A program made the position numbers and the translations under genes. A stretch of DNA of 64,000 nt, taken from Escherichia coli. Its GTDB lineage: Bacteria > Pseudomonadota > Gammaproteobacteria > Enterobacterales > Enterobacteriaceae. Under the pieces are notes generated by a model that searched no databases, was not told where the DNA came from, and was given only the letters and a program-made list of their open reading frames with translations. Below, piece after piece: positions 13,454 through 20,696 of the stretch. Within the stretch, counting starts at the first letter, position 1. Every line of letters starts with the position of its first letter. Location: the NCBI RefSeq assembly GCF_013315695.1, contig NZ_CP054353.1. One strand, 5' to 3'.

Positions 13454-14419
13454 TTAGAGAATGTGACCTAAGGTCTGGCGTAAATGTGCACCGGAACCGA
13501 GAAGACCCGGATTGTCATGGACGATGAGATATACCGGAATATCATGGACATATTCCTTAAAGCGCCCTTTATCTTCAAATGCGGCGCGGAAACCAGAGGC
13601 TTTGAAGAACTCAAGGAAGCGCGGCACGATACCACCCGCAATAAACACGCCGCCAAATGTCCCGAGATTGAGCGCCAGATTGCCGCCAAAACGGCCCATA
13701 ATGACGCAAAACAGCGACAACGCGCGGCGGCAATCGGTGCAGCTGTCAGCCAGCGCGCGTTCGGTAATATCTTTTGGCTTGAGATTTTCTGGCAGGCGGT
13801 TGTCGGCTTTAACAATTGCGCGATACAAATTCACCAGCCCAGGGCCAGAAAGCACGCGCTCTGCCGAAACATGACCAATTTCTGCACGCAGTATTTCGAG
13901 GATAATGCCCTCTTCTTCACTATTCGGCGCAAAATCAACGTGACCGCCTTCGCCTGGCAAGCTTACCCAACGCTTATCGACATGGACCAGATGCGCAACC
14001 CCTAGCCCCGTTCCGGCACCGTAAACCGCAATAGGCTTACCTTCTACCGGTTCTGCGCCACCAAACTGAATCAGATGCTCTTTTTTCAGCATCGGGATCG
14101 CCATCGATACAGCAGTAAAATCGTTAATAATTTCCAGATGGCTAAAACCGAGATTCTTTTTCATTTCGGCAATTGAGAACGCCCAGGTATGGTTGGTCAT
14201 TGCCACCCAGTCACCGGTAATTGGGCAAGCGATGGCAATACAGCCGTCTTTCACCTCGACCTTATGTTCTTCAAGATAAACGCGAATGACCGCTTCGAGG
14301 CTGGGGTAATCAAGCCCTGAATAGGTCTTAGCCTGCGAGATTTCACCACTGGCAATATCACACAGAGCAAGACGTGCGTTGGTGCCGCCCACATCACCGA
14401 CTAATGCATACTTTGTCAT
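13454..14419 (-). CDS. glk: glucokinase, 321 aa
   Basis: N-terminal [12 protein letters not shown]-binding motif; full-length glucokinase. Confidence 0.95.
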
Positions 14420-14622: not shown

Positions 14623-15879
14623 ATGCTCCATCCGCGAGCCAGAACCATGTTGTTATTATCGCTCCCCGCCGTGGCAATTGGGATTGCGTCCAGTCTTATT
14701 CTGATTGTGGTGATGAAAATCGCCTCGGTATTACAGAATTTGCTCTGGCTACGACTGCCGGGAACTCTGGGGATAGCCCAGGATTCACCTTTCTGGATCA
14801 TCGCCATATTAACGCTAACAGGTATTGCGGTGGGGTTGGTTATCCGTTTCAGCCAGGGGCATGCTGGACCAGACCCCGCCTGTGAACCGCTGATCGGCGC
14901 ACCGGTTCCGCCCTCTGCGCTACCAGGACTTATCGTAGCATTAATTCTCGGTCTTGCTGGCGGCGTCAGCCTGGGGCCGGAACATCCGATCATGACCGTC
15001 AATATCGCCCTTGCGGTTGCGATAGGTGCTCGTCTGTTACCGCGCGTCAACCGGATGGAGTGGACAATTTTAGCCTCTGCTGGAACCATCGGCGCGCTGT
15101 TTGGCACACCTGTTGCGGCGGCGTTGATATTTTCGCAAACCTTAAATGGCAGTAGTGAAGTCCCGCTATGGGATCGTCTCTTTGCGCCGTTAATGGCGGC
15201 GGCGGCTGGTGCGCTAACCACCGGATTGTTTTTCCATCCTCATTTTTCACTGCCCATTGCGCATTATGGGCAGATGGAGATGACCGATATTCTCAGCGGT
15301 GCAATTGTGGCGGCGATTGCCATCGCAGCAGGGATGGTTGCCGTATGGTGTCTGCCACGGTTGCACGCGATGATGCATCAGATTAAAAATCCGGTGCTAA
15401 TGCTGGGAGTGGGCGGATTTATTCTCGGTATTCTGGGGGTTATTGCTGGACCAGTTTCGCTATTTAAAGGGCTGGATGAGATGCAGCAGATGGTGGCAAA
15501 TCAGGCTTTCAGCACCAGCGATTACTTTTTGCTGGCCGTGATTAAACTTGCCGCTCTCGTGGTTGCTGCCGCCAGTGGCTTTCGCGGTGGGCGAATCTTC
15601 CCGGCAGTGTTTGTCGGGGTGGCATTAGGGTTGATGCTGCATGAGCACGTTCCCGCCGTTCCAGCGGCAATAACCGTTTCCTGCGCTATTCTCGGCATCG
15701 TGCTGGTGGTAACACGCGATGGCTGGTTAAGTCTTTTTATGGCGGCAGTCGTTGTACCCAATACCACATTGCTACCGCTGCTCTGTATCGTCATGCTTCC
15801 GGCATGGCTGTTATTAGCAGGTAAGCCGATGATGATGGTCAATCGTCCGAAGCAACAGCCACCCCACGATAACGTTTAG
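14623..15879 (+). CDS. yfeO: ClC-family putative ion channel/transporter, 418 aa
   Basis: Polytopic membrane protein with Gly/Ala-rich helices; divergent from glk. Confidence 0.85.
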
Positions 15880-15993
15880 CAAAAAATGCTCTCCTTTATG
15901 ATTTAAGAGTTATGGCGATGATACGGGGCTTTACCTCCCCGTAATATTGCGTTAACAGGCCGCTGACGGCTTCGATCGTGAAGGAGAATAACA

Positions 15994-16320
15994 ATGTTCA
16001 GGTCACTGTTTCTGGCGGCCGCCCTGATGGCATTTACCCCGCTTGCGGCAAACGCAGGTGAAATCACCCTACTGCCATCAATCAAATTACAAATTGGCGA
16101 TCGCGATCATTACGGTAATTACTGGGACGGTGGTCACTGGCGCGACCGTGACTACTGGCATCGCAATTATGAATGGCGTAAGAACCGCTGGTGGCGTCAT
16201 GATAATGGCTACCACCGTGGCTGGGATAAGCGTAAAGCCTATGAGCGTGGCTATCGTGAAGGCTGGCGCGATCGTGACGATCATCGCGGAAAAGGCCGCG
16301 GACATGGGCATCGCCATTAA
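15994..16320 (+). CDS. ypeC: secreted low-complexity Arg/Asp/Trp/His-rich protein, 108 aa (YpeC-like)
   Basis: Signal peptide [21 protein letters not shown] then repetitive RD(R/H)xYW-type motifs ending GRGHGHRH. Confidence 0.8.
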
Positions 16321-16344
16321 ACACATTTGCCAATGGAGCACAAT

Positions 16345-16380
16345 GCCTGATGCGACGCTAGTGCGTCTTATCAGGCCTAC
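16345..16380. repeat. REP (repetitive extragenic palindrome) element
   Basis: GCCTGATGCGACGCTAGTGCGTCTTATCAGGCCTAC, classic enterobacterial REP palindrome in the ypeC-mntH gap. Confidence 0.8.
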
Positions 16381-16398
16381 AAACCGGCTCTTTAACGC

Positions 16399-16433
16399 GT
16401 AGGGCGGATAAGGCGTTTTACGCCGCATCCGCC
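16399..16433. repeat. second REP element (inverted relative to the first)
   Basis: GTAGGGCGGATAAGGCGTTTTACGCCGCATCCGCC; with the previous repeat forms a BIME-like pair. Confidence 0.7.
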
Positions 16434-16461: not shown

Positions 16462-17709
<1,248 letters not shown>

Positions 17710-17712
17710 CTA

Positions 17713-17734
17713 AAACATAGCCTTTGCTATGTTT
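17713..17734 (-). promoter_or_regulatory. MntR operator in the mntH promoter
   Basis: AAACATAGC-N4-GCTATGTTT inverted repeat 13 bp upstream of mntH start; matches the published MntR box AAACATAGCAAAGGCTATGTTT read on the minus strand. Confidence 0.6.
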
Positions 17735-17749
17735 CATGCTATGTCAAAC

Positions 17750-17768
17750 GAGAATGATTATCAAATTC
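17750..17768 (-). promoter_or_regulatory. candidate Fur box in the mntH promoter
   Basis: GAGAATGATTATCAAATTC matches the 19-bp Fur consensus GATAATGATAATCATTATC at 14 of 19 positions by eye. Confidence 0.4.
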
Positions 17769-19270: not shown

Positions 19271-20696
19271 TAATGCCAGTCAGTTAAGCAACTGACTGGC
19301 TCTTTTTCGGGGCTGTGGGGTATTTCCAGGGCCTCTCCTTTACCACTCTCGGGAAGGCCCTTTCCCTTCTTGTCGGTAATTTCACAAGTTGTCCCATACT
19401 TGCAAGATCGCGCATCAGCTCCGGTATACGTCCCGGTGAAGCGCCCTGCAATGTCATCAGCATTCTCATCACCATTCCGCATGATTCTGAGAAACTCAGT
19501 TGATTCGGCCAGTAACCTTTCAGATGTTCCGCCATTTTAATCATCTGATATCTCACCAGATTATAAGCCAGTAAGACACCCCACAGCTCTTGCTCCACAA
19601 GCTCCGGTTTTTTACTTCTCAGCGTCAGCCTGCTCAGTTGCATCGTCTGTTTTATCTCCCTGTATCCCAGTTCGATTTCCCAGCGATGACTGTACAGATC
19701 CGCCATTTCTCCTCCGGGGAAGCGCATGGCGTCCGTCATCGACGTCAGCAGATGGCAGACTTTTCCTTTGCGCGTCACGGTCAGCAGGCGGGCTGTCACT
19801 TCATTTCCCAGTCCCGGCCACTTTTTTCGTGCCTGCGGGCTGGTTTTCAGCTTCACCAGATGATCGCCTTTACCCAGTTTTCTGATCTCTTCATATTGCG
19901 CTCCCTTTCTGAGAGGTATCATCCAGTGGCGGTGTTCTCCCGCCAGGCTCCAGGCATTTAACAGTCCCAGTGAGTAATAACCTTTATCCATTAACGTCAG
20001 AGTGTTATCGCCGGTTTGTTCTATAAGTTGCTCAGCAAGCTCATTTTCGCTGTTCTTCATCGTGCCGAAGGCTGCAGCCGTCAGCAGATGGCTGGTCAGT
20101 TCCATCTGGCAGACCATTTTGACCTGCGGGTAGAGCGCCGGGTTCCCGGCATGTGTCTGGCGGGGGAAGGCTGCATCGTTCTCTGGTGTATCCGGTGTGC
20201 GCCAGAACACACCATCGATGGCCAGCAGGGTCAGGCCGCACCAGTGCGGATGCGGCGTGGCGTTATGCCAGAGCTGCGCTGTTTTCGTGAACACGCGGCG
20301 GACAGCCTCACTTCCCAGGCGCTGGCGGGCCTGAATAACGGCACTGGGGGCAACGAAGGGGCGATTGCCCGGCAGCATGATGTCCAGGCGATTCACAATC
20401 TGGTGAAGAGGTTCTTTACGCTCAAGCGCCATGCCAACAATACACCAGACCATCATTTCGAGGGGAAGACGGCGCTTGCGTAGCGTTACAGTACCTGATT
20501 CGGCAAGGCAACGAGAGATGAGTTCGGGGTCGAGGTAATCCCCCAGAGAAGTCAGTGGGTTACGCAGAGAATCGTAACGGGATACCAGATCAAGAGCCTG
20601 TCCAATGTGCATAAAAAAATCCGGAAACAAGTGAGCGTTTCCGGATTCTTACACAGCCACTGGATCGGTCAACTGATCCTTAACTGATCGGCATTA
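19271..20696 (-). mobile_element. IS4 insertion sequence, complete (1426 bp)
   Basis: Terminal inverted repeats TAATGCCAGTCAGTTAAG (19271-19288) and TAATGCCGATCAGTTAAG (reverse complement of 20679-20696), 16 of 18 identical; length exactly 1426 bp; one 442-aa IS4-family transposase ORF; flanked by a 13-bp direct repeat. Confidence 0.85.
19284..20612 (-). CDS. insG: IS4 transposase (DDE, IS4 family), 442 aa
   Basis: ORF 19284-20630; ATG at 20612 gives MHIGQALDL... (442 aa), with an in-frame TTG 6 codons upstream; contains the IS4-family YREK signature ([15 protein letters not shown]). Confidence 0.85.

Follow-up and report, generated by a model that had tools for sequence, protein, structure and literature searches.

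The Escherichia coli gene ypeC is tied to cell-envelope stress regulators rather than to the adjoining mntH

The position of ypeC beside the manganese/iron transporter gene mntH raises the question of whether its small secreted product works with the transporter or belongs to some other system. The DNA analyzed, called the window below, is a stretch of 64,000 nucleotides of the E. coli chromosome. The genes around ypeC are the following.

13454-14419, minus strand: glk, named by 97-99% matches in related Escherichia loci
14623-15879, plus strand: yfeO, named by RefSeq annotation
15994-16320, plus strand: ypeC, 108 amino acids from ATG to stop, named by RefSeq annotation
16462-17700, minus strand: mntH, named by RefSeq annotation and a 97-99% match in related Escherichia loci
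to 19238, plus strand: nupC, named by 97-99% matches in related Escherichia loci

The ypeC gene is a known, annotated core gene of E. coli. A 701-bp query around the open reading frame finds it in 5424 of 5426 complete E. coli genomes, and the RefSeq label at the matches is 'DUF2502 domain-containing protein YpeC'. Translation of 15994-16320 on the plus strand gives exactly the protein that an earlier note on this DNA had quoted, 108 amino acids with the end GRGHGHRH. The protein matches Pfam DUF2502 (PF10697) over profile positions 1-90 of 90 with 85.4 bits (cut-off 27), and it has no match among the NCBIfam models. A ribosome-binding site, AAGGAG, lies 7 nt 5' of the start codon.

YpeC consists of a signal peptide, one conserved module, and a low-complexity tail, which occupy these positions.

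15994-16056, plus strand: predicted signal peptide, residues 1-21 (MFR, a hydrophobic stretch, and cleavage between ANA and GE)
16060-16203, plus strand: DUF2502 core, residues 23-70, delimited by alignment A1, AlphaFold2, and Pfam
16204-16317, plus strand: variable charged tail, predicted to be disordered, residues 71-108, with the Gly/His end at 16282-16317

The N-terminus is built like a Sec signal peptide, with a predicted signal peptidase I cut after ANA and without a lipobox cysteine. The A-x-A site and the hydrophobic core of the signal peptide are kept in homologues. The signal peptide proposed for YpeC agrees with these features and points to a location in the periplasm. The unusual Arg/Asp/Trp/His-rich composition described before is also borne out. 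The mature protein of 87 amino acids contains 18% arginine, 15% (14.9%) glycine, 11.5% aspartate, 10% histidine, 9% tryptophan, and 8% tyrosine, and it has a pI of about 10 and a GRAVY of -2.1 (-2.12).

Conservation is concentrated in residues 23-58, as seen in alignment A1 of 29 intact, diverse DUF2502 members. Seven positions are invariant (P28, G35, G41, Y43, W44, D45, and G46) and four are nearly so (L32, D38, W49, and W55), while the histidine positions within the core are variable. YpeC follows the pattern of the family, a signal peptide and then the module [LIV]x[LIV]GDRDxxGxYWDGxxWRDxxWW. The YWDGxxW motif may resemble families of aromatic beta-hairpin repeats, for instance WXXGXW or cell-wall-binding repeats. 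AlphaFold2 run on A1 gives pLDDT values of about 85-92 for residues 31-70 and below 50 for residues 73-108. The model contains short strands, and residues 52-58 form its one helix. Residues 23-70 are confidently modelled as a small beta-plus-helix, aromatic-rich domain. A sequence profile search of the PDB with YpeC found no hit even at E = 10, and fold comparison found no known fold relative of the core that would hint at a ligand.

The tail varies in sequence and keeps its composition, which suggests selection on composition. A tail segment of 14 residues is kept within YpeC orthologues. The C-terminal part has units that resemble YERG or YREG and a Gly/His run, and the YERG unit is present in the Chimaeribacter tail as GYERGFERGYERGYERG. 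At least three histidines occur in the last 15 residues of 25 of the 29 relatives, though the tails cannot be aligned. The earlier description of YpeC as almost wholly degenerate repeats is correct for parts of the protein only. Residue-class autocorrelation has a single, weak peak at lag 6 (z = 3.4), and self-alignment at offsets of at least 10 scores 65 against 43 +/- 11 in shuffled sequences, with 10 of 200 shuffles equal to it. The one clear internal repeat is WRDRD, encoded at 16137-16152 and 16263-16278 by DNA that is 94% identical, and the tail is of low complexity. On the other side, residues 23-58 are non-repetitive, self-alignment at offsets of at least 20 is not significant, and there are no DNA tandem repeats in ypeC.

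DUF2502 is a small family found mostly in Enterobacterales. Clustering at 90% identity gives 278 clusters; at 50% identity, among 1.84 billion representatives, the number is only 85. In 100,044 species genomes that were scanned, 430 loci came up. The named members belong to Enterobacteriaceae, Yersiniaceae (Chimaeribacter), Erwiniaceae (Pantoea), and Pectobacteriaceae (Brenneria), with a few from beta-proteobacteria (Deefgea and Jeongeupia). All 29 aligned relatives match the Pfam family, and a permissive Pfam scan for a second family in them found DUF2502 only. In several distant homologues the module is duplicated. Two distant members (P0164 and P0185) lie on short contigs, and their contexts are uninformative. 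Many database 'homologues' are frameshifted translations of the ypeC locus that switch to the +2 frame (for example P0127, P0142, and P0163), so the apparent diversity of the family is inflated.

A paralogue, YaaX (E. coli b0005), shares several properties with YpeC. Like YpeC it carries a signal peptide followed by this core, with 62% identity over YpeC residues 2-66. Its C-terminus is His-rich (HDHHGGHGPGKHHR; translation of L086), and the Rcs system induces it as well. It differs from YpeC in that its tail is rich in proline and histidine instead of YERG and WRDRD, and its gene lies between thrC and yaaA, not beside mntH. The Brenneria member of the family adjoins fklB. A search for a cis-element common to the ypeC and yaaX promoters did no better than in shuffled sequence.

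Some database entries for the family require caution. The 116-residue Pantoea stewartii member (P0213) has one UniRef name that reads 'Zinc ABC transporter substrate-binding protein', most likely an annotation artefact transferred through His-rich composition. A ypeC sequence 100% identical to that of E. coli is found on a 398-bp contig labelled Rhizobium wenxiniae, and a contig labelled Chryseobacterium sp. contains the whole enterobacterial glk-yfeO-ypeC-mntH-nupC region. These two entries (L002 and L054) are probably from contaminated or mislabelled assemblies.

The neighbourhood of ypeC does not support a functional link to mntH. The two genes are adjacent, as was noted before, but they are convergent, with ypeC on the plus strand and mntH on the minus strand, and they form separate transcription units. 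Their 3' ends face each other 141 bp apart, and two repeats lie between them.

16345-16376, no strand assigned: REP palindrome in the ypeC-mntH spacer, inverted repeat I4
16403-16433, no strand assigned: REP palindrome in the ypeC-mntH spacer, inverted repeat I5

Rfam gives only sub-threshold matches to REP-derived naRNA4 in the spacer (49.7 and 39.4 bits, cut-off 59.5), and a scan for intrinsic terminators found no canonical terminator after ypeC. The operators of mntH are at the other end of that gene. At its 5' end there is an MntR operator, AAACATAGCAAAGGCTATGTTT, at 17713-17734 that matches at 22/22 positions, and a Fur box, GAATTTGATAATCATTCTC, at 17750-17768 that matches at 15/19. Both are 1.4 kb from ypeC and face away from it. 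A search of 15840-16000 for the same motifs, a check that the earlier note had proposed, found at best 13/22 for MntR and 12/19 for Fur, and the Fur-like match overlaps the A/T-rich marbox described below. The ypeC promoter thus shows no sign of co-regulation by Fur or MntR. The mntH control region itself (17713-17768) is intact in this strain and lies directly upstream of the mntH start codon.

The convergent ypeC/mntH pair is kept in most of 80 Enterobacteriaceae loci and in Chimaeribacter. Since the whole region from glk to nupC is syntenic, the conserved pairing says little. The arrangement is conserved only for the orthologues, and the paralogues are found elsewhere; with yaaX next to thrC and the Brenneria member next to fklB, there is no link of the family as a whole to metal transporters. 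The argument from the placement beside mntH is therefore not supported, given convergent genes with REP elements between them, operators at the far end of mntH, and paralogues in other loci.

Two other features of the region were observed. In seven Citrobacter loci (L008, L012, L013, L014, L016, L027, and L076) there is no match to mntH or nupC within 5 kb downstream of ypeC, and these loci appear to have an insertion or rearrangement there. Directly downstream of nupC in the window, 19284-20630 on the minus strand encodes a 448-residue IS4-family transposase (Pfam Nterm_IS4 and DDE_Tnp_1). K-12 presumably carries IS186 at the position downstream of nupC, and this strain seems to carry a different insertion sequence there.

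The DNA upstream of ypeC has a conserved organization, which was studied in an alignment (A2) of the 160 bp upstream of the gene in 20 genera. The elements are listed here with positions in the window.

15875-15889, minus strand: marbox (MarA/SoxS/Rob site) GCATTTTTTGCTAAA, the exact published 15-mer, overlapping the yfeO stop codon
15900-15911, plus strand: conserved block GATTTAAGAGTT, at about -56 to -45, GATTTA(A/G)GAGTT across genera
15919-15924, plus strand: weak -35 position, TGATAC, as expected for an activator-dependent promoter
15923-15942, no strand assigned: GC-rich palindrome ACGGGG-N8-CCCCGT, filling the promoter spacer from the weak -35 to the -10 and part of inverted repeat I2
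15942-15947, plus strand: -10 hexamer TAATAT, with TA..AT invariant in the 20 genera
15956-15993, plus strand: 5' untranslated region of 38 nt, with the putative start at C15956 placed by alignment from Salmonella SL1344
15957-15962 paired with 15967-15972, plus strand: predicted 5'-terminal leader hairpin of 6 bp, one base after the putative start
15981-15986, plus strand: Shine-Dalgarno sequence AAGGAG within the 5' untranslated region, a ribosome-binding site conserved in A2

About 120 bp upstream of ypeC are conserved across the 20 genera. The direct upstream neighbour is yfeO only in Escherichia, and other genera have about 3 kb more at this point, containing ipdC and gpr (PMC5770404). 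Conservation of the 120 bp although the upstream neighbour differs indicates that the promoter belongs to ypeC. This promoter appears to be activator-dependent with a weak -35. A simple sigma-70 scan upstream of the gene found no consensus promoter, and 8 nt separate TAATAT from the downstream position that corresponds to the cappable-seq start in Salmonella. The palindrome is kept in most genera, and both of its arms change together in Salmonella diarizonae. The base pairs of the leader hairpin are kept in 19 genera, with some exchanges of G-C for A-U, and it may be an mRNA-stabilizing 5' stem-loop. Within the block at 15900-15911, TT..GAGT is invariant in the 20 genera. This block could be an activator site, and its TAAGA fits a left RcsB half-site.

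The marbox connects ypeC with the MarA/SoxS/Rob regulon. The 15-mer has a single match in the window, where none is expected by chance, and it is kept in 19 of the 20 genera. It is in the class I orientation, with its center at about -74 from the putative start site. The class I promoters of mar, acrAB, fpr, and fldA likewise place a backward-oriented marbox upstream of the -35, and the ypeC promoter differs from them in having the extra conserved block and the GC palindrome in the spacer. The same 15-mer is the MarA ChIP-seq site for ypeC in ETEC, scored '+++' in Table 1 of that study, and ypeC is among seven MarA targets also found by SoxS ChIP-exo (PMC5684230). It is also the SoxS ChIP-seq site upstream of ypeC in Salmonella Typhimurium, and the supplement of that work lists ypeC as a class I promoter with the cappable-seq start site marked (Salmonella SL1344, Fig. 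S1; PMC10268841). Identity of the sequence suggests that these regulators also bind in this strain. The earlier statement that there is no regulatory evidence in the sequence is contradicted by this exact published site.

Expression data tie ypeC to the Rcs envelope-stress system as well. Inhibition of LolCDE raises ypeC transcripts 42-60x, and wca, bdm, ycfJ, and spy rise as well (PMC5105897). Where rcsB is disrupted, in an isolate of E. coli O157:H7, ypeC transcripts are down 23.7x (PMC5343319). Its paralogue yaaX has been assigned to the RcsB regulon, and both colicin M and the LolCDE inhibitor induce it. An Rcs reporter plasmid has also been constructed with the promoter of a DUF2502 gene from Serratia (PMC8470065). 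In addition, ypeC is part of the common recipient response of E. coli and Klebsiella to RP4 conjugation and of multi-stress gene sets. The RcsB box has the published form TN(G/A)GAN4TC(T/C)NA (PMC7913699), and a search for RcsAB or RcsB boxes upstream of ypeC (15840-15993) and of yaaX found nothing at 7/8 or better. With no recognizable box at either gene, Rcs control of ypeC may be indirect or may act via a non-canonical site. Other small exported proteins (OsmB, YmgD/YmgG, YcfJ, Ivy, and Spy) are co-induced in the same way by damage to lipoprotein sorting or peptidoglycan. They differ from YpeC in that there is no sequence or fold relationship, Pfam giving DUF2502 alone for YpeC, and the functions known for such Rcs-induced proteins, lysozyme inhibition and chaperoning, are not transferable to it. 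Overall ypeC is tied to regulators of cell-envelope and antibiotic stress rather than to the adjoining mntH.

YpeC is probably a periplasmic effector of the response to envelope damage, under the control of Rcs and of MarA/SoxS and independent of mntH. Its Sec signal peptide would be removed after ANA and the mature protein set free in the periplasm. The trigger for its production would be a disturbed outer membrane, disturbed lipoprotein sorting, or disturbed peptidoglycan. An active Rcs phosphorelay would then strongly induce ypeC, and MarA/SoxS would act via the class I marbox about 74 bp upstream of the start site. In the periplasm the cationic, aromatic-rich, His-tailed protein might buffer the damage by binding divalent cations or anionic material of the envelope (glycans, LPS, or the head groups of phospholipids). 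This last step is speculative and is proposed from composition. The searchable literature yielded no ypeC mutant phenotype and no experimentally assigned function. The beta-proteobacterial members (Deefgea and Jeongeupia) count against an Rcs effector, as they are outside Enterobacterales, beyond which the Rcs system is not known to occur. Of the two roles that had been offered for YpeC, a periplasmic metal-binding protein or a stress protein, the secreted stress protein agrees with the signal peptide, the strong induction by envelope stress, and the MarA/SoxS target site, while the support drawn from placement beside mntH falls away.

Metal binding is unlikely to be the role of YpeC, though several observations favor it. 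The Gly/His-rich C-terminus, perhaps together with aspartates of the core, would bind divalent cations, with Ni, Zn, and Cu more plausible than Mn, and YpeC would buffer them or hand them on; the version in the earlier note has it cooperate with MntH. The recurrent His-rich tail, in relatives whose tails are unalignable, fits metal binding at least as well as it fits binding to envelope polymers, and the conserved positions include D38 and D45. SoxS also governs functions that depend on Mn. The persistence of the convergent pair with mntH as far as Chimaeribacter also speaks for a metal role, as does the zinc-transporter name of the Pantoea member, which is probably only an annotation artefact. 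ZraP, RcnB, and ZinT are His-rich periplasmic metal proteins that, like YpeC, are secreted and small, and some of them have His-rich termini. In contrast to these proteins, YpeC has no sequence match to any such family, and its gene does not adjoin a metal-responsive operator, the Fur and MntR sites being at the other end of mntH. The conserved pairing with mntH loses its force because the convergent genes have no common transcript and the glk-nupC order is conserved anyway, and the paralogues are in unrelated loci. The histidines of the core are not fixed in position. No known metal-binding family matches YpeC in Pfam, NCBIfam, or the PDB, where DUF2502 is the only match, and there is no fold match, which leaves the composition of the His-rich tail. 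The literature mentions of ypeC, b2390, and yaaX that were examined contain no metal-stress or metal-binding result.

A more elaborate proposal is quite improbable. It makes YpeC and YaaX a dedicated envelope-damage arm, in which a small cationic protein, rich in Trp and Arg and with a His tail, would fill the periplasm in large amounts once Rcs or Mar/Sox is activated. By binding to LPS or to phospholipid head groups, or by taking up the divalent cations that bridge LPS molecules, it would reseal or buffer the damaged outer membrane. In a narrower version, YpeC would be a periplasmic donor of Mn or another metal to MntH under superoxide stress.

It is very doubtful that YpeC is a protectant of the 'hydrophilin' type, that is, a hydrophilic, Gly-rich, largely disordered periplasmic protein that needs no specific ligand and shields envelope components when cells dry out or are under osmotic stress. 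The criteria reportedly set by Garay-Arroyo et al. in 2000, glycine above 6% and high hydrophilicity, define a composition class and not a homologous family, and the mature protein falls within this class by its glycine content and GRAVY. Disorder is predicted for the last 36 residues, and ypeC is induced together with osmotic-stress genes in the LolCDE-inhibitor data set. However, the most conserved part of the protein is the folded, aromatic-rich module with its invariant YWDG, which argues for a specific interaction, and a protectant of this kind leaves the recurrent His-rich end unexplained.

There is an exceedingly small chance that ypeC is spurious, either a chance open reading frame in compositionally odd DNA or a frame that overlaps the true product: long alternative frames do overlap it (16043-16402 on the plus strand and 16087-16428 on the minus strand) and databases hold many frameshifted translations of the locus, but the Pfam match, the signal peptide, and the ribosome-binding site are all in the ypeC frame, published ypeC transcription is strong and regulated, and the idea was rejected because conservation tracks the ypeC frame across families of Enterobacterales.

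The gene, its family, the marbox, and the Rcs-linked expression have all been published or annotated previously. The contributions made here are a map of the conserved ypeC promoter, a search for Fur and MntR sites at ypeC with a clearly negative outcome, and the division of the protein into a conserved, predicted folded core and a tail in which sequence varies and composition is kept. The gene belongs to those with the strongest induction under a block of lipoprotein sorting. It is also one of many conserved 'y-genes' of E. coli, and its role would add to the Rcs and Mar/Sox programmes of envelope defence, which bear on antibiotic tolerance.
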